Shown here one piece after another: positions 2,476-34,175 of a DNA stretch of 64,000 bases. The notes below the pieces were generated by a model. That model was not told the DNA's origin. It did not search any database and saw nothing but the letters and a program-made list of their open reading frames with translations. The translations under genes were made by a program, and so were the position numbers. How positions within the stretch are numbered: the stretch's first letter is position 1; each line of letters starts with the position of its first letter. The stretch is from Candidatus Cloacimonadota bacterium (GTDB taxonomy: Bacteria > Cloacimonadota > Cloacimonadia > JGIOTU-2): contig JAUWMT010000002.1 of assembly GCA_030613025.1 (NCBI GenBank), positions 19,945 through 83,944 on the forward strand, given 5' to 3'.

Positions 2476-2552
2476 GAAGCTGCTGTTCACCTATTGTAAC
2501 AGGATTTGTAATCCCGTTTAATTAAAATATGAATTTTTTTTATGAAGAAGTA

Positions 2553-2590
2553 AACACCATTATAAATGGTGTTGGATCGTTTATTTGAAG
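2553..2590 (+). terminator. hairpin aacaccat-tataa-atggtgtt followed by a T-rich tract; likely terminator of the protease gene
   Basis: perfect 8-bp stem at 2553-2573, then ggatcgtttattt. Confidence 0.45.
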
Positions 2591-2810
2591 ATTATTTTTA
2601 TATGAATCAAAATATTCATTTCCTTAAGACAAAACACCTCCTCCGATAAATCGGAGACTCCTCTTCCGTCTTCATTTCATTACGCCGAGATAAGCAAGAA
2701 GTGATTTTCTCTGCCTGCCAAGGCGTAGGGGAACAAAGACTTGTGCTCTCTGTGGTCTCTGTGGTGAATTCTTTTTTTTTTCGGTTTATCCGAGTTAGGA
2801 AGATAGTAAT

Positions 2811-3980
2811 ATGAAAGATAAAATTTTACTTTGTTTGAAGTTGCTGCTAATTGTGCTGCTCATTGTTGTGGGATCAATAATCTCAGTGAAAGTTTGGTCA
2901 GGAAAAGAGGAAGAATTAGAAGCTGTTACCGAGATCGTCATCGAAAAAAATATGACAATTGCCCAGATAGGAAAGGTAAATGGGCTGTCCAATATTGTGC
3001 TGAAAAATGCCTTTCAATTACAATCTAAAGAAGATCTTCAAAAGAAATTTTATGAAACCGGTATTACAATCGAAGAAGCAAAAAGTAGGATTATAAAATC
3101 ATTTGTCCTGCAGTCTGAAGATGCATCAAAGGATTGGAAGAAGATCGCAGCAAAATTTGTATTGTGGATTGCATTTCTAATTTTCATTTTTACGCTTATC
3201 AGAAAAAAGAAGATCAAAACAAAACTTCGGAACCGGTTATATTTTATTGCATTTGTGCTTTTTGGTATTGTGCTTGGAGCAGACCCGTCACCGATGGGAA
3301 CAATTAAAGACAATTTTGTGCTTCTCGGTTCATTTCATGTTATCTTTCCCCCTCGAGTTGTTGCTCTTTTTGTTATGCTTTTGATGGTCGTGCTGGTGAA
3401 TAAATTCATCTGCTCGTGGGGATGCCAGCTTGGGACGTTGCAGGATCTCATTTTCAGGATTAATAAAGATAAAAATGGGAAACCGGTTATTGCGAAAGTC
3501 AAAATTCCATTTGTGATGACTAACACGATTCGAATCATTTTCTTTCTTGTGTTTGCAGTTATTGCTTTAGTTTGGGCATTTGATATTATCGAACCGGTCG
3601 ATCTGTTTAAAATATTCAAGCCATCTGCGCTTGGTATTATCGGGATTATTTTTGCAGCGATCATGTTAAGTCTTTCGCTCATTATTTACCGTCCCTGGTG
3701 CCATCTCTTATGCCCATTTGGTCTGGTGGGCTGGATAGCAGAAAAGATAAGCATCATAAAAATAAAGGTAAATTATGAAAAATGTATTGCGTGTGGAGCA
3801 TGTGTGAAAAGTTGTCCATCAACAGCAATGGAGGCGATAATCAAGCATAAGAAAACAATTCCCGATTGCTTTTCCTGTGCATCCTGTATAGAAAGTTGCC
3901 CGGTCGATGCGATCGAATTTAAAGCCGGAAAGAGACAGAAGCCAACGAAAGAAATACTGGAGAAATTAGAAAGAGTTTAG
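2811..3980 (+). CDS. NapH/MauN/YccM-family membrane polyferredoxin (4Fe-4S binding membrane protein)
   Basis: two CX3CP motifs inside TM segments (CSWGCQLG, CHLLCPFG) and a C-terminal 2x[4Fe-4S] ferredoxin domain (CIACGACVKSCP, CFSCASCIESCP). Confidence 0.7.
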   Translation: MKDKILLCLKLLLIVLLIVVGSIISVKVWSGKEEELEAVTEIVIEKNMTIAQIGKVNGLSNIVLKNAFQLQSKEDLQKKFYETGITIEEAKSRIIKSFVLQSEDASKDWKKIAAKFVLWIAFLIFIFTLIRKKKIKTKLRNRLYFIAFVLFGIVLGADPSPMGTIKDNFVLLGSFHVIFPPRVVALFVMLLMVVLVNKFICSWGCQLGTLQDLIFRINKDKNGKPVIAKVKIPFVMTNTIRIIFFLVFAVIALVWAFDIIEPVDLFKIFKPSALGIIGIIFAAIMLSLSLIIYRPWCHLLCPFGLVGWIAEKISIIKIKVNYEKCIACGACVKSCPSTAMEAIIKHKKTIPDCFSCASCIESCPVDAIEFKAGKRQKPTKEILEKLERV

Positions 3981-4146
3981 GCACTTAACTCTAAATTCCT
4001 TATCCCGAAAGTCTTCGGAAGCAAAAAATTTCCAGCAACTAACAAAAACTAACAATAATATTTTTTTGATTTTTTTGTTAGATTTTGTTCGTTTTGTTCG
4101 TTGCTAAATGATTTTTGGTTTCAGTTTATACGAGCTATGTTAAATT

Positions 4147-4188
4147 AAAAAAAACACGGAATCAAAATCGACTCCGTGCTTTTATTTA
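4147..4188. terminator. bidirectional rho-independent terminator between the napH-like gene and hppA
   Basis: A8-cacgga-N12-tccgtg-cttttattt; on the minus strand the hairpin is followed by T8. Confidence 0.6.
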
Positions 4189-4206
4189 TGTTTGGGGGTT
4201 AAGAAA

Positions 4207-6411
4207 TTACATGATTCCGAGGAACTGCTGAATTGCAGGTGAGAACGCAACGATCAGACCCGCAAAAACAATACTCACCATACTCATCAATTTAATAAGA
4301 ATATTAATTGAAGGACCGGCAGTATCTTTGAAAGGATCTCCGACAGTATCACCTACTACACATGCCTTATGAATTTCTGAGCCCTTACCGCCGTAGTGTC
4401 CGATCTCGACATATTTTTTTGCATTATCCCAAGCACCACCTGAGTTGTTCATCATAACTGCAAGAGTAAAACCGGTTGTCAGTCCACCGACGAGGAGTCC
4501 CATCACGCCGGCAACACCAAGAATTAGACCCACGATAATAGGAGTGAGAATGCCGAGAAGCGCCGGAGCGACCATTTCTTTCTGAGCACCTTTAGTTGAG
4601 ATGTACACGCATTTTGCATATTCGGGCTCAGCTGTACCTTCCAGAATACCGGGAATTTCTTTAAATTGACGGCGAACTTCCGCAACCATATCACCCGCCG
4701 CACGACCAACTGCTTTGAGCGTCATCGCTGCAAAGACAAAGGTAACCATTGCGCCAATAAAGATGCCGACAAGCGTTTTGGGATTCATAAGTGTAATATT
4801 ATAATGTTCAACAAAATTGGCAATAGAAGCAGTACTCAGATCAACACCTGCGATAAGTGTTTCTCCTGCTAACTTCAAACCAGTTCGAACTTCTTCAAGA
4901 TAAGCTGCGAGAAGTGCCATTGCAGTTAGCGCAGCAGAACCGATTGCAAATCCTTTTCCTGTTGCAGCAGTTGTATTTCCAACAGAGTCGAGGGCGTCTG
5001 TACGTTCCCGTACTTCTTTAGGAAGTTTGGACATCTCAGCATTGCCGCCTGCATTATCTGCAATAGGACCAAAGGCATCCATGGCAAGGGTAACACCGAG
5101 TGTAGAAAGCATACCTACTGCACCAAAACCAATACCGTACAATCCCATTTCCGGAATAAGGAAACCTTTACTCACCGCAAAGGCGGAAATGATAGCAATA
5201 GCAATAATAATAACAGGAGCACCTGTAGAGTTCATCCCAACTGCAAGTCCATCTATGATAACAGTTGCAGGTCCGTATTCAGCTTGTTCTACGATTCCTT
5301 TCGTTGGTTTAAAACTGTAAGAAGTGGAACGTTCCGTGAACACACCAATTAAAATACCCGCAAGCAATCCAATAACCGATGCAAAAAAGACGCCTAGTGA
5401 ATATTCCGGTGGAAGCATCCATTTTGTAACAAAGAATGCAACAATTGCAATGAGGATCGAGCTGCCGTACACGCCTTTGTTCAATGCGAACATGAGATCT
5501 TTTGTGGTGGCGTCCTCTTTTGTAGAAACCAGATAAATACCAAGAATTGAGAGAAATGCACCGATACCGGCAAGGATCATTGGGGCAGTGACAAAACGGA
5601 TTGCAATGTCCTGCAAAGCAGGTATTTTTATAGAGATCTGCGTGAAAGCAGCCATACCCAGTGCTGCTGTAGCCAATATCGAGCCGCAGTATGATTCATA
5701 AAGATCAGCCCCCATTCCTGCTACATCACCCACATTATCACCAACATTGTCTGCGATAGTGGCAGGATTTCGTGGGTCATCTTCCGGAATGCCGGCTTCG
5801 ATCTTTCCTACAAGGTCAGCTCCCACATCGGCAGCTTTGGTATAAATACCTCCACCAAGACGAGCAAAAAGAGCTTGGGTTGATGCACCCATTCCAAAGC
5901 TAAGCATCACAACTGTAATTGTATGAAGATCCATTTTGAAGGCATTCAGCACAAAGAACCATGCAGAGATATCAATTAGTGCAAGTCCCACAACTACAAG
6001 TCCCATCACACCACCGGCGCGGAACGCAATAGTTAAGCCCTTATTAAGACTTTGCCGTGCGCCCTGGGCGGTTCTGTTTGAGGCAAGTGTAGCTGTGTTC
6101 ATGCCGATCCAGCCAGCAAGTCCGCTGAAGAAACCACCGGTTAAAAATGCCCATGGAATAAGCGGGTGGAGTACTTTCAGCACCCAAGCCATAATGTTAA
6201 AAACTATAAAAGCAGCGATAAAAAATATTCCTACTCCTTTATACTGCTGTTTAAGATAAGCGAATGCTCCTTCTCGCACATACTTGGCGATTTTCTGCAT
6301 TTGCTCATTGCCGGGATCTTCTTTCTTTACGCTTCTATAAAGAATAAAGGCAAAGATCAGAGCGACGATAGCACCACTTGGAGCCACGATCCATAACAAA
6401 GGTATGTTCAT
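4207..6411 (-). CDS. hppA: membrane-bound proton/sodium-translocating pyrophosphatase
   Basis: 734 aa, about 16 TM helices, hallmark DNVGDNVGD and GGxxxNAKKYxE motifs. Confidence 0.95.
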
Positions 6412-8866: not shown

Positions 8867-9020
8867 GCAAGATTCCAATCTTGCTTTATCCGCTCTTTAC
8901 CAAGCCCTCTGCTTGGTAAAGCAGAAGCTGGGGCTTCCGGATTTAGTTCCGTTACCAATTTAGGAATTGGTAAAGAGAGGAAAGTGGAGAATTTGCGTAA
9001 AACAAGATTCCGATCTTGTT
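8867..9020. repeat. cluster of hairpin (REP-like) repeats downstream of the caspase-like gene
   Basis: gcaagattccaatcttgc (8867-8884); ctttaccaagc-cctct-gcttggtaaag (8895-8921); ttaccaattt-agg-aattggtaa (8952-8973); aacaagattccgatcttgtt (9001-9020). Confidence 0.7.
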
Positions 9021-9043: not shown

Positions 9044-10069
9044 ATGAAAAAATTATTACTTTTAATTGGCGCACTACTCATTGCAGTTCCCCTCTACACC
9101 CAGCAGATAACAAATGTGAACCATAAAATTGAGGAAGGCAGAATAGTAATTACATACGATTTAAGTGGAACAGATGAATATGAATACACCGTTTCTATTC
9201 AAGCAAAAAACAACGCGGGACAGCAAATTAAACCAGAAATTGTAGTTGGTGATATCGGTTATGTAGAACCAGGGAATAGTAAAACCATTTACTGGGAGCC
9301 ACAGCTAGAAGGACGAAACCTAGAAGGGTGGATTATCTCTCTTGATTTAAAGTATAAAGAAAATCCAATGGTCTTCGTCCAGGGTGGCACCTTCCAGATG
9401 GGTAGCAATAGTGGGGACAGTGACGAAAAGCCGGTTCACAGTGTAACGGTGAGTGATTTTTATATTGGGAAATATGAAGTAACCCAAACGGAATGGAAAG
9501 AAGTGATGGGTAATAATCCGAGTTTTAGGAAAGGCGATAATTTCCCTGTAGAAAAAGTGAGCTGGTATGATGCAGTAGAATTTTGTAATAAGAAAAGCAG
9601 AGCAAAAGGTCTCACACCTTGCTACACAGGTAGTGGGAAAAACATAACGTGCAATTTTAATGCAAATGGTTATCGCTTACCCACCGAGGCGGAATGGGAG
9701 TATGCAGCGAGAGGTGGTAATAAGTCGAAAGGATATACCTATTCCGGGAGTAATACTATTGGCAATGTCGCATGGTATAATAATAATTCGGGAATCACAA
9801 CCCATCCAGTTGGTAAGAAGCATCCCAATGAACTTGGTATTTATGACATGAGTGGCAATGTTTTTGAGTGGTGCTGGGATTGGAAAGGAAGTTATGGCAG
9901 CAGTTCACAAACAAATCCTACAGGTGCCAGTGACGGCTCTCGTCGTGTGCGTCGCGGCGGTAGCTTGTACAGCGTTGCCATGTACTGCCGGGTTGCTATT
10001 CGCCACCACAGCATTCCAGATCTCACACTCAACTACATAGGCTTCCGATTGCTCCGCGGTTCAAAGTAA
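9044..10069 (+). CDS. FGE-sulfatase (SUMF1/formylglycine-generating-enzyme-like) domain protein, secreted
   Basis: signal peptide; motifs typical of the family (YRLPTEAEWEYAARGG, YDMSGNVFEWCWD, RVRRGGS). Confidence 0.8.
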   Translation: MKKLLLLIGALLIAVPLYTQQITNVNHKIEEGRIVITYDLSGTDEYEYTVSIQAKNNAGQQIKPEIVVGDIGYVEPGNSKTIYWEPQLEGRNLEGWIISLDLKYKENPMVFVQGGTFQMGSNSGDSDEKPVHSVTVSDFYIGKYEVTQTEWKEVMGNNPSFRKGDNFPVEKVSWYDAVEFCNKKSRAKGLTPCYTGSGKNITCNFNANGYRLPTEAEWEYAARGGNKSKGYTYSGSNTIGNVAWYNNNSGITTHPVGKKHPNELGIYDMSGNVFEWCWDWKGSYGSSSQTNPTGASDGSRRVRRGGSLYSVAMYCRVAIRHHSIPDLTLNYIGFRLLRGSK

Positions 10070-10245: not shown

Positions 10246-11139
10246 ATGAAAAAAAGTATTATTTTAATTATTCTTACAATATTTATTGCATCCTGTGCAT
10301 CAAATAATCAAACAGCAACGAATGCTCAAGTTAATTCATTCAATCAGTCTATTCAGAAAACAGGCGCAAGGGACCTTGGAGATGGCTGGATAGAATCCAA
10401 TGCACAGGTGGAGATAGCACACATCACACCGGAAGAAGCGAGGGAAAAGGCAATAGATAAAGCATGTAACCAAGCATTAGAATCTTATGGCGTGGATGTC
10501 ACTGGAAGAAAACTTTATATTGTGGGAGAAGATGCCGAGAAAGTCACCCGAGATGATTATCTTAACCTTACAGAACAGACCACCCAGGGAATAATTTTGG
10601 ACAAGAAGGTTATCAGTGAACAAATAATAACGATTGGCAATGCAATCTTTTCAAGGGTAACAGTTCATGTCAAAATCGGACAACAGAAGGGCGAGAAAGA
10701 TCCTTATTTCTCACTCGATGCATCACTCAATAAAGAACATTTCCAGGAATATGAGACCCTTGAAATATCCTGTGTTGCTTCAAAGGACTGTTATATTACG
10801 ATCTTAAATATTTGCTCTAATGATACGGTGTATGTGCTTTTTCCAAATCAATATAGAGAATATAATTTTGTGCAAACAGGGGAAGAATTCAAGTTCCCAA
10901 ACAAAGCCGATAAGAATATTGGGATTTCCTTACCGGTTCAGCTCCTTCCGGGTAAAATAACCGATAGCGAGATCATAAAAATAATTGCAACAAAAGAGCT
11001 ACTCAATCTTGTTGAGTTCAAATCCGATATGACTTATGGAACCTGCAGTGCAACACTCACCAAACTCATGCAGAGACTCATCACAATCCCACGCGATCAG
11101 ATCGTTGAGTATGATCTTATGTATTTTGTGCATAAATAA
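10246..11139 (+). CDS. lipoprotein, probable DUF4384-like C-terminal domain
   Basis: lipobox IASC; C-terminal ...DCYITILNICSNDTVYVLFPNQ... resembles the DUF4384 pattern (from memory, not searched). Confidence 0.55.
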   Translation: MKKSIILIILTIFIASCASNNQTATNAQVNSFNQSIQKTGARDLGDGWIESNAQVEIAHITPEEAREKAIDKACNQALESYGVDVTGRKLYIVGEDAEKVTRDDYLNLTEQTTQGIILDKKVISEQIITIGNAIFSRVTVHVKIGQQKGEKDPYFSLDASLNKEHFQEYETLEISCVASKDCYITILNICSNDTVYVLFPNQYREYNFVQTGEEFKFPNKADKNIGISLPVQLLPGKITDSEIIKIIATKELLNLVEFKSDMTYGTCSATLTKLMQRLITIPRDQIVEYDLMYFVHK

Positions 11140-11174: not shown

Positions 11175-11201
11175 TATTGCTTTACCAAGCAGGGGCTTGG
11201 T
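11175..11201. repeat. hairpin repeat ctttaccaagc-agggg-gcttggtaaag (second copy of the 8895-8921 element)
   Basis: identical 11-bp arms, different 5-nt loop. Confidence 0.7.
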
Positions 11202-11278
11202 AAAGAGGTTAGAGTAGTGGAACTGGTAAAGAGAAAGGAACCTGTCCATTTTGGCGGACATTTTTCAATAAAATACAG

Positions 11279-30396: not shown

Positions 30397-31089
30397 ATGT
30401 TAAAAGAATTAATTAAATTATTCAAAAAAAGTAATCTCTTTAAAGAGGCACATCAGGACGCCTGTATTATGCTTAATCGGGCAAATAATATGTTTGATAA
30501 TGCGAGCGCTCAACTGCGTGGGAGAGAGATCCCTCATCCGGATATTGATATATTTTACGAGGAAAGAAAGGTCGATAAAACTGAACGTGCTGTGCGAAGG
30601 AAAGTTTTAATACATCTCTCAGCTACAGGTGCTATGGACACACCAGGTGCGATCATTCTTATCGGTATAGTAATAGACATTGAGAGGGTGGGCGATTATA
30701 CCACAAACATCCTGGAACTTGCCCGAGCAGCAAATATAAAACTTGATGCAGGAATTCTTGATGATGAGCTGACCGAAATTGAGTTGGAGGTAGAGCACAT
30801 GTTTGATGTGGTGAGCAAAGCTTTTGAAGAGTATGATAAGGATATTGCCGAGACTGTTATCAATAAAAGATTAACCGGAAGATGCGAGATCCTTCTTCAT
30901 CAGCTTATGACTGAAGATGTTGGTTTGAAAGTTCAGAATGCTGTAGTTGCAGCATTATATATTCGATATCTAAAGAGAATTGCCGCACATCTTCTCAATA
31001 TTGCAACTTCTCTTGTACAGCCATTTGATAAAGTCCGCTTTATGCCGGAATCTGCTACTACTGAGTATAAGCAAAAAAGAGAGAGTTAA
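30397..31089 (+). CDS. PhoU-domain protein paired with the Na/Pi cotransporter
   Basis: 230 aa helical protein, PhoU-like repeat, conserved adjacency to NptA. Confidence 0.75.
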   Translation: MLKELIKLFKKSNLFKEAHQDACIMLNRANNMFDNASAQLRGREIPHPDIDIFYEERKVDKTERAVRRKVLIHLSATGAMDTPGAIILIGIVIDIERVGDYTTNILELARAANIKLDAGILDDELTEIELEVEHMFDVVSKAFEEYDKDIAETVINKRLTGRCEILLHQLMTEDVGLKVQNAVVAALYIRYLKRIAAHLLNIATSLVQPFDKVRFMPESATTEYKQKRES

Positions 31090-31189: not shown

Positions 31190-31218
31190 ATCGTCACCAA
31201 GTTCAACTTAGTAACGAG
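31190..31218. repeat. 29-nt near-palindromic repeat, copy 1 (atcgtcaccaagttcaacttagtaacgag)
   Basis: seen directly; nested palindrome with one stem mismatch. Confidence 0.85.
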
Positions 31219-31234
31219 AAAAAAAATTATCACT

Positions 31235-32161
31235 TTATTTTATGTTTAACCAATCTCTCTTTATAGTTCTATCAAACTCGCCATCAAAAGAATCTCTAAA
31301 AGATAGTAATAAGGAACGAGCAAATCCATCTAAACCAGGAAATAAGGTTTCAGAAGTTATATTCATGTCTTGTAAATCATACATTGCCGAATTGTGGCAA
31401 TCTCTAGGAATTATAAACTTAACTAATGGCCAATCATTTACAATCGAATAATCAAATGGATCGGTTAATGTAATAAAATATGAATTAGGTTTATCTATAA
31501 TCCCGATAGTTGAGTTTAAATTTTCATTAAAAGTAGTGTTTATATTGCAAGGAAATACGAATACTCCTTGTTGAATTGATAATCTTTCATTTAATATTTT
31601 AGGAGTAGTGTATGTGACAAAATTATCGCTGACTTGGTTTGACAAAACATAATTTGCAAAACTAAATGTATCAAAATATTCTTCTCCATCGTAAAATTTT
31701 TTCTCTTCAATAGTATTTGCAATATCTTCAATTGCATCATCAATCAATTCAAGATTTATCGCCCAAATTGCAGAATCAGAATTTGCTTTTTCCATAGAGA
31801 AAAATGCTGCTATATAGAACGAAAATGTAAAATCTAATAACCTTGTAGGGCCTCCATAATTCTGAAGTAAACTAAGCCATCCAACCCAATCGTTAACTTC
31901 TGGAAGTAAAATTTTATAAAATTGAGCACGATTTTTTAATTTATCTAATAAATATTTTTCTTTGTTGTATAAAAGTTTAGAATTAGAAAATAAACTGTAA
32001 TCATAAAACTCAAGTTGTCTTTCAAGGTTGGTTTTAAGTTCCCATTCAGAGTCGCTTTGACCACGGAATATCCAATTTGTAGCTTTGCACATCAAGAGCT
32101 GTATTTTCCGTACAGTCTCCCATGTATCAACTTTAATTGTGGTGTAATTAACATCTTTCAT
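31235..32161 (-). CDS. FRG-domain protein
   Basis: 308 aa; WIFRGQSDSEWELKTNLER matches the FRG-domain signature; very AT-rich gene. Confidence 0.75.
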   Translation of the reverse strand: MKDVNYTTIKVDTWETVRKIQLLMCKATNWIFRGQSDSEWELKTNLERQLEFYDYSLFSNSKLLYNKEKYLLDKLKNRAQFYKILLPEVNDWVGWLSLLQNYGGPTRLLDFTFSFYIAAFFSMEKANSDSAIWAINLELIDDAIEDIANTIEEKKFYDGEEYFDTFSFANYVLSNQVSDNFVTYTTPKILNERLSIQQGVFVFPCNINTTFNENLNSTIGIIDKPNSYFITLTDPFDYSIVNDWPLVKFIIPRDCHNSAMYDLQDMNITSETLFPGLDGFARSLLLSFRDSFDGEFDRTIKRDWLNIK

Positions 32162-32303
32162 TTTACCGCCTGTATCTCGGATAAGGTTTTTCTACCTAAA
32201 AGGAGCTTTAGAGAATTCTAGAAATTTAATGCTAACCAATAATGTATAGGTTATAAAAATCTAACAAGTAAATTTTCAATTTCCCTGTCAAATATTATAG
32301 AAA

Positions 32304-32332
32304 CTCGTTACCAAGTTCAACTTCGTAACGAG
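32304..32332. repeat. 29-nt palindromic repeat, copy 2 (ctcgttaccaagttcaacttcgtaacgag)
   Basis: perfect nested palindrome CTCGTTAC-c-AAGTT-c-AACTT-c-GTAACGAG; shares 5' flank ttatagaaa with copy 4. Confidence 0.85.
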
Positions 32333-32364
32333 TACAACAATTTATAGAATAACAAATTTGTTTA

Positions 32365-32718
32365 TTAATGGGAATAATCTGAAACCAGCTTTTTAATTCC
32401 ATCTTCTAAACTTAAAATATCTTCTGTTACTGTATTCCAAACCACCTGAGTATCAACACCGAAGTAATCGTGAATTAATTTATCTCTCATACCAGCCATA
32501 AATCGCCATGGAAGCCATGAATAATTCTCTTTAACTTTTTTTGGTATTTTTTTTGATGCTTCACCAATTATTTCTAAAGCACGAATTACAGCGTATTGTG
32601 ATTTTTTATCTTCTTGAAAGGTTAGGAAATCCATGTCGTGTATGAATGATTTTATATTGATTATCGATTCTAAAATATCGTTAAGATAATCGATTATTAT
32701 TCTGTCTTTTTCTTTCAT
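32365..32718 (-). CDS. hepT: HepT-like (DUF86) toxin of a HepT/MNT toxin-antitoxin pair
   Basis: 117 aa with Rx4HxY motif (RDKLIHDY). Confidence 0.85.
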   Translation of the reverse strand: MKEKDRIIIDYLNDILESIINIKSFIHDMDFLTFQEDKKSQYAVIRALEIIGEASKKIPKKVKENYSWLPWRFMAGMRDKLIHDYFGVDTQVVWNTVTEDILSLEDGIKKLVSDYSH

Positions 32719-33029
32719 ATTATCGATTGAGCTTCAGCTAATATTTTTTGTCCTATATTTGGTTTTAATGAACTTCTCATTACCAAATCAACTTTTACAC
32801 CGATCAGCTCACTTAAATAATCTTCCAATTCAATAAACTTAAATAGAGAAGGAGCTTTTGAGAATGACACTAAAATATCTAAATCACTGTTTGACTCTTG
32901 TTCATTTCGCACAAAAGACCCAAACACTTCAAGAGTGGCCACATAATATTGAGTCTTAAGTAGAGGTAATTCTTCTTTTAATTTTAATACGATGTTTTTT
33001 AATTTATCCATAATTAAATAAAATTTCAA
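32715..33029 (-). CDS. mntA: MNT-type nucleotidyltransferase antitoxin
   Basis: 104 aa with GSx(n)DxD motif (FGSFVRNEQESNSDLDILV); 4-nt overlap with hepT. Confidence 0.85.
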   Translation of the reverse strand: MKFYLIMDKLKNIVLKLKEELPLLKTQYYVATLEVFGSFVRNEQESNSDLDILVSFSKAPSLFKFIELEDYLSELIGVKVDLVMRSSLKPNIGQKILAEAQSII

Positions 33030-33109
33030 AAGATCATTTTTTATGTCAATTTATTATTTTTTGATGGATCAAGCAGTTTAAAAAATAGTTAAATATTGGA
33101 TTAAAAAAA

Positions 33110-33138
33110 ATCGTCACCAAGTACAACTTAGTGACGAG
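33110..33138. repeat. 29-nt palindromic repeat, copy 3 (atcgtcaccaagtacaacttagtgacgag)
   Basis: perfect 7-bp stem; on the minus strand it is followed by T8, so it probably also terminates the rnf operon. Confidence 0.85.
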
Positions 33139-33153
33139 AATATTTATAGAAAC

Positions 33154-33179
33154 TCGTTACGGAGTTGAACTTCGTAACG
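33154..33179. repeat. palindromic repeat, copy 4 (ctcgttacggagttgaacttcgtaacg)
   Basis: same element, 10 nt from copy 3, shares the ttatagaaa 5' flank with copy 2. Confidence 0.8.
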
Positions 33180-33191
33180 CAACAATATTTA

Positions 33192-34175
33192 TCAGGACTT
33201 TGCCTCTATCGCTTTTTTCGGACAGACATCAATACAAATTCCGCACTGAATACATTTCAACTCATCGATCTTATGAACCTCTTTAACTTTTCCATCAATT
33301 GCATCAACCGGACATTTCTTCGCACAGATCGTGCAGCCGATACAATTTTCTTCAATAATTATTGGCTGAGGTCGAATTTTAATTCTATCTTCAATAGCTT
33401 TTGTAGGGCACACAGTTGCGCACAAACCGCAGGAAACACACTTTTCATAATTAATAGTTGCGAGATTATTTTCAAGGGTTATCGCATCAACAGGGCATTT
33501 CTTAACACAGAGACCGCAGCCGATACAAGCAGTATTGTTTCCGCAATTTGCTTTTGCAAACTTACCTTTATCATGAGACATGCACTGAATATGTACTTTT
33601 TTACTGATAGGTACGAGCTCAATAAGGTCTCTCGGACAGGCTTCCACGCAATTTCCGCATCCTGTGCATTTATCCTCATCAATAATACGCATATTATTTT
33701 CATCTATAGAAATCGCATCAAAGGGACACACGCGATAGCAGTCATTATAACCGAGACAGCCGTATGTACATGCATTCTGCCCATTTGAAAGCAATATTGA
33801 TGCCTGACAGGTGGCAATGCCTTTGTTTTCAAATTTGATATTCGTGTTATTAATTCCACCACTTTGACAATGGATAACTGCAATATTTCTCTCTTTTTTA
33901 CTTGCTTTTGTTCCAAAGATCTTTGCGATTTGCACAGCTACATCATGCCCACCGGGTGCACACAACGTGGGATCAGCACCGGATACAACTATAGCTTCTG
34001 CATAAGCAGCACAGCCGGGATAGCCACAAGCACCGCAATTTGCACCGGGTAATGCTTCCTCGATCTGTTCAATTTTAGGGTCAATATCCACATGAAATAC
34101 CTTTGAAGCAAAAGAGAGTGCGATACCAAATAATATACCAAGGACACTTAAAACAATTATGGAAACCAATAACAT
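33192..34175 (-). CDS. rnfB: Rnf complex subunit B (polyferredoxin type)
   Basis: N-terminal TM helix, multiple 4Fe-4S Cys clusters, operon position. Confidence 0.9.
   Translation of the reverse strand: MLLVSIIVLSVLGILFGIALSFASKVFHVDIDPKIEQIEEALPGANCGACGYPGCAAYAEAIVVSGADPTLCAPGGHDVAVQIAKIFGTKASKKERNIAVIHCQSGGINNTNIKFENKGIATCQASILLSNGQNACTYGCLGYNDCYRVCPFDAISIDENNMRIIDEDKCTGCGNCVEACPRDLIELVPISKKVHIQCMSHDKGKFAKANCGNNTACIGCGLCVKKCPVDAITLENNLATINYEKCVSCGLCATVCPTKAIEDRIKIRPQPIIIEENCIGCTICAKKCPVDAIDGKVKEVHKIDELKCIQCGICIDVCPKKAIEAKS

Follow-up and report, generated by a model that had tools for sequence, protein, structure and literature searches.

The repetitive extragenic palindromic (REP) sequences of Escherichia coli and Pseudomonas, together with the compound forms called REP doublets forming hairpins (REPINs) and bacterial interspersed mosaic elements (BIMEs), are short, imperfect extragenic palindromes with covarying stems. 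They lie at the 3' ends of genes, singly, as inverted doublets or in clusters, and they are linked to a REP-associated tyrosine transposase (RAYT) (PMC3116915, PMC3479197, PMC3733652, PMC5581495). REPIN-RAYT systems have been described as lineage-specific and mostly vertically inherited. Here we analyzed a 64,000-nt stretch of DNA (the window) from Candidatus Cloacimonadota bacterium GCA_030613025.1 (contig JAUWMT010000002.1, positions 19,945 to 83,944 of the forward strand), in which four copies of a near-perfect palindrome of 27 to 29 nt accompany an FRG-domain gene and a HepT/MNT toxin-antitoxin (TA) pair between the core genes rnfB and phoU. The locus also resembles the minimal mobile elements of Neisseria and the intergenic mosaic arrays bounded by dRS3 repeats. 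Like these, it has conserved flanks, varying cassettes, no mobility gene, and short palindromic repeats at the boundaries, and exchange in both cases is presumed to proceed via DNA uptake and recombination. Unlike these, it lies in another phylum, has another repeat, and combines terminator anatomy with a link between the repeat family and a RAYT. The dRS3 repeat has itself been classed as a CGTC-type REP (PMC3733652).

We conclude that the palindrome belongs to the REP class in the accepted sense (PMC3116915, PMC3479197, PMC5581495), because the same hairpins flank RAYT genes in other genomes. Our full explanation, to which we give a probability of roughly 65%, is that the locus is a REP-bounded defense/TA hotspot, that the REPs would act as terminators, and that recombination would end at them. 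An initial annotation, made from the sequence alone, had likened the locus both to integron cassettes and to REP-flanked insertions; the second comparison was the correct one. It had also pointed to a RAYT encoded elsewhere as something to look for. In all, four other genomes have a RAYT gene with flanking hairpins of this family, and no RAYT was found in the window.

On two of the contigs compared (all of which carry L numbers), a 176-aa gene lies between two hairpin modules (L043, 266 to 796, minus strand; L049, 290 to 820, plus strand). Its product gives weak Y1_Tnp matches and scores 114 to 116 bits (E ~1e-33) with the NCBIfam model NF047646 ("REP-associated tyrosine transposase"), which has a cutoff of 80 bits. 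The best match with a solved structure is 4ER8, the E. coli TnpA-REP. The protein has an HUH motif (DNHLHAI) and the tyrosine region IDYIHNNPIKRG, with the tyrosine in IDYIHNNP, and more than 1,000 homologues are on record, many of them named RayT by JGI. RAYT genes flanked by the same hairpins are also present in Chthoniobacter flavus (L110 and L111) and on a 4-Mb contig (L112), in each case at 2501 to 3034. The L112 hairpins form an inverted pair, 38 nt before the RAYT start codon and 28 nt after the stop codon. Incomplete RAYT genes occur as well: a partial copy lies at the end of L069, beside a tandem array, and a degraded copy follows a hairpin A-B module, described below, in a Hydrogenedentes chromosome (L014). 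A more distant RAYT (L113 to L116) has a diverged flanking hairpin that keeps the outer CTCGTTCC...GGAACGAG, as expected if REP and RAYT evolve together.

The hairpin family extends over several phyla. Exact matches to TCGTYACNNAGTNNAACTTNGTRACG were sought in GTDB contigs (one genome per species) and in JGI metagenome contigs, which gave 28 and 68 palindrome loci, respectively (L001 to L096). By our own estimate from the degeneracy of the pattern, about one hit per collection is expected by chance. The hosts, as labeled, are Verrucomicrobiota (including the isolate Chthoniobacter flavus Ellin428), Hydrogenedentes, Cloacimonadota, Deferribacteres, Neomarinimicrobiota, a deltaproteobacterium and a cyanobacterium. 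Nine of the loci lie in one 5.1-Mb Hydrogenedentes chromosome, and palindrome-bearing contigs have GC contents between 28 and 66%. In the 96 loci, the copies mostly lie between open reading frames (ORFs), and the matches inside a coding region in L021 and L033 look like chance. The element has a stem of 11 to 12 bp and a 3-nt loop, with 94% of the alignment cells paired. Its stem covaries: 59 cells are changed on both sides, versus 11 expected, and none of 500 shuffles reached the observed value. Among the covarying pairs, pair 6 is U-A in 61 cases, C-G in 15 and G-C in 7, and pair 9 is C-G in 46, G-C in 14 and A-U in 3.

The window palindrome corresponds to hairpin A of this family (TCGTTACCAAGT-NNN-ACTTGGTAACGA). 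Outside the lineage of the window, hairpin A is usually followed 9 nt on by a smaller hairpin B (CGAAGT-NNN-ACTTCG), and a hairpin C (GTTCCCAAGT-NNN-ACTTGGGAAC) often lies about 12 nt beyond B. This A-B-C module of about 95 nt is the usual unit elsewhere in the family, and in its three hairpins it differs from the described REPs. Inverted doublets of A around a longer hairpin are found in L054, L076, L095 and L096, and tandem arrays in L069 (with a 188-nt period), L009, L054 and L095. Outside the Cloacimonas locus, no gene family is enriched beside the palindrome among 85 and 132 flanking ORFs, most of them housekeeping genes, which rules out a general tie to accessory or TA genes. Copies unrelated to accessory genes, an outcome that the initial annotation had set against its own cassette idea, are thus seen in part, namely away from the Cloacimonas locus. 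No Rfam family matched the hairpins of the window segment or of 18 + 7 loci, at the gathering threshold or permissively (E up to 10). The palindrome was absent from the viral contigs and plasmids searched, and its sequence was not found in the literature searched. A complete A-B-C module lies between a cobalamin riboswitch (362 to 612) and its presumed ORF in L011 (362 to 830), which places a REP module inside a 5' untranslated region; the same arrangement occurs in L044, L066 and L068.

In the window itself, four copies had been reported, near 31190, 32304, 33110 and 33154. A search with a 27-nt degenerate pattern, allowing up to three mismatches, recovered all of them, the fourth one nucleotide earlier than stated (Table 1). 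The search gave five matches at the four sites, one site matching on both strands, and no match in 100 shuffled sequences. A second search, with up to eight mismatches, found no further copy in the 64-kb window. With a covariance model, the four copies score 40 to 46 bits, and the only relatives are three much weaker ones of 18 to 20 bits at 8893, 8948 and 11178. All four copies are intergenic. Copies 2 and 4 have, as first noted, longer flanks in common (ttatagaaa...acaa(.)atttat), a feature visible directly in the sequence. Copy 1 reads CTCGTTACTAAGT-TGA-ACTTGGTGACGAT on the minus strand, followed by TTATT, and it recurs with an identical downstream block in L010, L020, L038, L047 and L082. 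Copy 2 has a poor T-run, being followed by TTTCTATAA, and forms a hairpin with one internal mismatch on either strand. Copies 3 and 4 form a tandem REP pair, and the same pair is present in L010, L056, L062 and the empty site of L046. An AT-rich 9-bp inverted repeat (TAAATATTG / CAATATTTA, window positions 33089 to 33099 and 33181 to 33193) encloses copies 3 and 4 in a DNA fold. It is probably fortuitous, because it is not conserved in L006 or L010.

Table 1. Coordinates of the genes and REP copies at the rnfB-phoU junction of the window
Feature	Position	Strand	Remarks
phoU	30397-31089	+	Pfam PhoU, E 3.5e-16; conserved right-hand flank of the hotspot, convergent on the insert
REP copy 1	31190-31218	-	phoU-proximal boundary; terminator-like hairpin of the FRG gene; 42.7 bits
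FRG-domain gene (308 aa)	31235-32161	-	Pfam FRG, E 2e-19; PADLOC candidate defense family PDC-S15, E 5e-37
REP copy 2	32304-32332	-	Between the HepT and FRG modules; 45.8 bits
HepT toxin (HEPN ribonuclease)	32365-32718	-	Pfam HepT-like, E 9e-28
MNT antitoxin (nucleotidyltransferase)	32715-33029	-	Pfam NTP_transf_2, E 4e-14; PADLOC PDC-S09; 4-nt overlap with HepT
REP copy 3 + T8	33102-33138 (repeat 33110-33138, T8 33102-33109)	-	Intrinsic-terminator shape after rnfB
REP copy 4	33153-33181	-	Directly 3' of the rnfB stop codon; 40 bits
rnfB	33192-34175	-	Last gene of the rnf operon; Pfam Fer4 and FeS domains; conserved left-hand flank of the hotspot

The junction REPs have the anatomy of transcription terminators. 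In the sense of rnfB, almost every junction copy reads CTCGTCACTAAGT-TGA-ACTTGGTGACGA, followed by six to eight T residues. A terminator scan called copies 1 and 3 terminator-like on the minus strand, copy 3 with 12 pairs, a 3-nt loop and the tail TTTTTTTT. The RNA fold of copy 1 has an energy of -17.4 kcal/mol on the minus strand versus -6.3 kcal/mol on the plus strand; the gap arises from two positions that pair as G·U in one strand but face each other as C·A in its complement. The 24 distinct junction REPs, all of which point in one orientation as judged by the T-run and the wobble asymmetry, together have 22 G·U pairs on the gene-sense strand versus 5 on the other. A T-rich tail, with five or more T among the first 8 nt past the stem, is present in 22 of these 24. 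On the sense strand, the rnfB, HepT and FRG stop codons are each followed by a hairpin at a distance of 10 to 35 nt. The G·U strand asymmetry points to selection on the transcript, and through it to a putative terminator or insulator role. We predict that the REPs are terminators that would insulate rnfB and each cargo module. The initial annotation had read copy 3 with its T8 as the rnf terminator and had placed all palindromes in one orientation; both statements proved right, and the terminator shape extends to nearly all junction copies. Like Rho-independent terminators, the elements have a stable stem-loop and a U-run after stop codons on the sense strand. Ordinary Rho-independent terminators, however, are not conserved in sequence between genes or phyla and have no link to a transposase.

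The genes around and between these copies were identified with Pfam as an FRG gene, an overlapping HepT/MNT pair, phoU and an RnfB-type gene, as first annotated. The wider flanks are the rnf operon and a phoU/Na-Pi transporter region. The insert has a GC content of 28 to 32%, versus about 39 to 43% on either side, in line with the AT-rich accessory insert that had been described. No recombinase or integrase was found among the ten window ORFs of about 300 aa, an integrase-like size (other window ORFs were not scanned), which agrees with the earlier remark that the locus has no integrase. A tblastn search with the family RAYT found none in the window or in about 60 kb of the relatives' flanks.

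We then compared the space from rnfB to phoU in about 15 related Cloacimonadota contigs. Among these, L006 (a Cloacimonetes single-cell genome), L010 (Candidatus Cloacimonas sp.) and L020 are 87 to 88% identical to the window and syntenic with it, and rnfB synteny is kept in L006, L010, L020, L032, L035, L047, L063 and L082. At least eight gene contents were found between rnfB and phoU, with no mobility gene (Table 2). The FRG gene is missing from most relatives, and the FRG-HepT/MNT insert is absent from several, including the empty site of L046. This comparison, which had been proposed along with the accessory nature of the insert, bears out that proposal: the contents of the junction vary by lineage. 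The cargo also matches the suggestion that TA and FRG genes are defense-type cargo, since it includes PADLOC defense candidates (DUF2971, family PDC-S31, in addition to FRG and MNT) and the type IV restriction enzyme GmrSD. The locus is therefore a defense/TA hotspot that varies between strains and is enclosed by two core genes; in its basal state it consists of the tandem REP pair. The claim that the palindromes delimit the cassettes holds for most module boundaries and fails at several cargo gene boundaries that have no REP (L047 and L032).

Table 2. Gene contents of the rnfB-phoU junction in the window and in related contigs (P, one palindrome copy)
Contigs	Arrangement	Remarks
L046	rnfB, P P, phoU	Empty site
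L010	rnfB, P P, PIN toxin gene	
L056, L062, L074	P P (single P in L074), then convergent 210-aa unknown gene	rnfB 3' end only before the pair in L056 and L062
L020, L058, L063	(rnfB), P, MNT-HepT, P, PIN toxin-antitoxin	phoU seen only in L020
L006, L032	rnfB, P, MNT-HepT, P, two unknown genes, truncated P, phoU	Truncated P seen in L032
L035	rnfB, P, DUF2971 gene, P, phoU	
L082	rnfB, P, GmrSD restriction enzyme, P, phoU	
L047, L117	(rnfB, P), NosD-like gene, 521-aa (L047) or 443-aa (L117) unknown gene, MNT(-HepT), P, phoU	
Window, L038, L097-L104	(rnfB, P P), MNT-HepT, P, FRG, P, phoU	

Three of these arrangements have further peculiarities. In L062 (8941 to 9243), the last ~100 nt of rnfB and the REP pair sit 3' of a different Fe-S gene, a homologue of window positions 2811 to 3980, with no full rnfB before them; either the region has been rearranged, or a copy of the rnfB tail has been displaced together with its REPs. 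L020 has an insertion of about 350 to 400 nt without a long ORF (1186 to 1529), located between the post-REP block and the MNT promoter region and absent from the window and L006. L038 and L097 to L104 are contigs of only 2.1 to 2.5 kb that break inside HepT and just past phoU, which suggests strain heterogeneity at the hotspot. In these contigs HepT is split into ORFs of 58 and 35 aa, apparently by a frameshift, whereas the window HepT is intact.

Identity along the junction changes at the REP copies. MNT-HepT is 95.7 to 99% identical to the window in relatives where rnfB is 84 to 87.6% and phoU 87 to 93.5% identical, and FRG reaches 100% identity in L038, against 92.6% for phoU. Sliding comparisons with L063, L006 and L020 gave 94 to 100% identity from copy 2 to copy 3 (with one 50-nt bin of L006 at 82%), dropping to 72 to 90% from the REP pair (33100 to 33200) into rnfB and falling at copy 2 too. 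The comparison with L038 shows 100% identity across HepT and FRG and a dip at copy 1, after which 94 to 100% is maintained into the 3' half of phoU. On the rnfB side, the cargo begins to differ immediately past the REP and its T-run; on the phoU side, it does so immediately ahead of the phoU-proximal REP. L020 has a single REP next to rnfB, and this copy is a hybrid: its left arm and flank are those of copy 4 and its right arm and T-run those of copy 3, the pattern that recombination between copies 3 and 4 would produce. Modules are thus exchanged between lineages, and the exchanged tracts end at REP copies.

The cargo genes have relatives outside this junction. An identical FRG protein is present on 13 contigs, and the eight places among the matches listed are all at this locus; L038 and L097 to L104 carry the identical gene, each time here. 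The nearest other FRG homologues (L105 to L109, 49 to 57% identical) have no palindrome nearby, and the same is true of HepT/MNT homologues of 81 to 83% identity at unrelated loci (L118 to L123), which include the beta-oxidation operon of an organism with 57% GC and a site beside nfeD in Calditrichota. One contig found as a HepT/MNT homologue, L117, proved to be another variant of the same junction, and the exact HepT protein of the window is not on record elsewhere. Because these homologues lack the palindrome, we conclude that the cargo genes travel by other means elsewhere and that the REPs are features of this site. A self-mobile cassette consisting of a gene plus its palindrome is not supported, on the same grounds. 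Nor is the suggestion of a new kind of palindrome-bounded mobile cassette, the palindrome outside this lineage lying beside housekeeping genes.

We propose that the rnfB-phoU space of this Cloacimonadota lineage carries a resident tandem REP pair, and that each REP most likely acts as a terminator and insulator for the transcript of the preceding gene. Defense and TA genes (HepT/MNT, FRG, PIN, GmrSD, DUF2971 and others) would have accumulated between and behind the REPs, and extra REP copies would now divide the modules. The modules would be gained, lost, and passed between lineages by recombination ending at REP copies, the likeliest route being recombination at or between the 27- to 29-nt repeats after DNA uptake. 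The repeat is placed in a REP family whose RAYT partner can be demonstrated and which occurs in the little-studied phyla Cloacimonadota, Verrucomicrobiota and Hydrogenedentota, and the locus documents a small defense/TA hotspot with modules delimited by REPs and exchange tracts that stop there. For REPs, the direct orientation with terminator anatomy, the coincidence with exchange end points, and the near-identity across phyla are less usual. The last of these, a nearly identical 27-nt hairpin kept by a single REP-RAYT system across at least five phyla, is a further novel aspect; REPIN-RAYT systems have usually been regarded as lineage-specific. If REPs generally act as insulating terminators and recombination anchors of accessory genes, a repeat class of debated function would have a host-level role.

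Several observations weigh against this explanation. The hairpin alignments contain no conserved unpaired tetranucleotide tag at one end, GTAG or CGTC, of the kind that marks the REP families catalogued in PMC3733652; CGT(C/T) is part of the stem, where it pairs with (G/A)ACG. In classical REP clusters, inverted arrangements prevail (PMC3733652), whereas all copies here point the same way, carry T-runs and separate accessory genes. Within the lineage of the window, we saw the palindrome at this junction only, as 4 copies in 64 kb plus the three diverged relatives, and the link to a RAYT comes from other genomes of the family. As to the terminators, the T-run of copy 2 is weak, and the fold of copy 4 is slightly more stable on the plus strand. 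As to exchange, the identity tracts in L006, L020 and L063 may stem from one event, in which case few independent events lie behind the coincidence of end points with REPs.

The palindromes might instead be locally duplicated terminators and nothing more. In that case, DNA uptake followed by homologous recombination in the conserved flanking genes, rnfB and phoU, would alone account for the changing junction contents. The terminator anatomy and strand asymmetry agree with such an account, as do the core genes around the variable region, the lack of a mobility gene, and the L038 tract that runs on at high identity into phoU. However, identity in L006, L020 and L063 falls from 98 to 100% to 72 to 88% right at the REP pair, not inside rnfB. 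The hybrid REPs, and the presence of pairs in some contigs versus single REPs in others, show that the repeats themselves recombine, and conservation of the hairpin across phyla together with its RAYT link is unlike a plain terminator. We consider this account rather unlikely.

Also conceivable is a more active role for the transposase, in which a pair of REPs in the same orientation would resemble the ends of an IS200/IS605-like element, and a RAYT encoded elsewhere would excise the gene between them as single-stranded DNA and paste it beside another REP. The hairpins are bona fide RAYT partners in other genomes, and direct REPs flank the GmrSD gene (L082), the DUF2971 gene (L035) and, relative to L010, the whole HepT/MNT-FRG block (copies 3 to 1). 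The ending of high-identity tracts at REPs and the existence of hybrid REPs would also be accommodated. If true, it would be a new, integrase-free and integron-like cassette mechanism that builds defense islets and explains why tracts end at REPs. However, each cassette was seen at this one locus only, with the nearest FRG and HepT/MNT homologues elsewhere free of the palindrome; the window and the surveyed flanks of its relatives gave no RAYT; and the REP-free cargo boundaries of L047 and L032 do not fit. We know of no RAYT shown to move cargo genes, and we regard this possibility as distinctly improbable.

Recombination by an unlinked tyrosine recombinase (XerC/D or an integron integrase), with the palindrome as crossover site, has still less in its favor. 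As in integron arrays and clusters of attC sites lacking integron integrases (CALINs), for which an adjacent intI is not required, each gene is followed by a site in one orientation, and TA and FRG-type cargo is typical of integron cassettes; three FRG homologues (L105, L107 and L108) lie between attC-like motifs, and hybrid sites would fit a crossover near the palindrome center. However, an attC site has 57 to 141 nt with R/L boxes (R''-L''...L'-R'), extrahelical bases on the folded bottom strand and GTTRRRY at the cassette boundary, whereas the element here is a plain 12-3-12 hairpin of 27 to 29 nt, half the minimum attC length and without R/L boxes. No bulged bases were seen on either strand in DNA or RNA folds, only symmetric internal mismatches, and the extrahelical bases for which the initial annotation had proposed folding both strands are thus absent. 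GTTGAAC/GTTCAAC occurs only at the hairpin loop. The cargo genes have promoter-like regions of their own, the same hairpin adjoins housekeeping genes in other phyla with no cassette context, and no integrase is adjacent or among the ten ORFs scanned. The demonstrated partner is an HUH-type RAYT, not a tyrosine recombinase, and where the left-hand module (HepT) is the same, the whole palindrome changes type rather than its right half alone. The pdif sites of Acinetobacter plasmids are 11-6-11 Xer sites related to dif that alternate in orientation. pdif modules are likewise discrete, often TA modules bounded by ~28-bp imperfect palindromes with no recombinase gene inside, but the copies here are chromosomal, bear no likeness to dif, have a 3-nt loop at the center and point in one orientation. 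The anatomy largely refutes a site-specific cassette array, and with it the integron/attC comparison first made, so that we hold this reading to be scarcely probable.

Other candidates were dropped: a sequencing-adapter artifact (an isolate genome carries the element, and independent assemblies have it at syntenic positions), a transcription factor operator (compensatory stem changes within single arrays argue for structure), a dif/Xer site, a CRISPR repeat, and a miniature inverted-repeat transposable element with terminal inverted repeats, which fits the inverted-doublet variants only, these being better described as REPINs.

The homologues of the cargo genes have surroundings of their own. 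In L105 (~3950 to 4969), L107 (~4921 to 5050) and L108 (~1622 to 1750), the FRG homologues are flanked by attC-like GTTAGNN/NCTAAC motifs, with GTTAGCT upstream and CCAGCTAAC / GTTAGAGG...TCTAAC downstream, and the L105 gene lies beside Phd and BrnT toxin-antitoxin genes; these three look like genuine integron cassettes. In L118 to L121 (~3480 to 4460), MNT (3705 to 4004) and HepT (4001 to 4354; 83% identical to the window HepT) are inserted in the beta-oxidation operon. They are flanked on both sides by a direct repeat, ACCTACAGCCTTTTT(T)ATAAA, and by runs of AACCCTA/AAACCTA heptamers, the number of which varies between contigs.

The three weak relatives of the palindrome in the window (8893 to 8923, 8948 to 8977 and 11178 to 11207) form a second, diverged hairpin set that shares TTACCAAG...CTTGGTAA. 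Three copies of CAAGATTCCNATCTTG are present at 8868, 9003 and 10190. Together, these hairpins and the CAAGATTCCNATCTTG copies occupy the intergenic spaces around an FGE-sulfatase-like gene (9044 to 10069) and a DUF4384 gene (10246 to 11139), which may be another REP-bounded gene pair.

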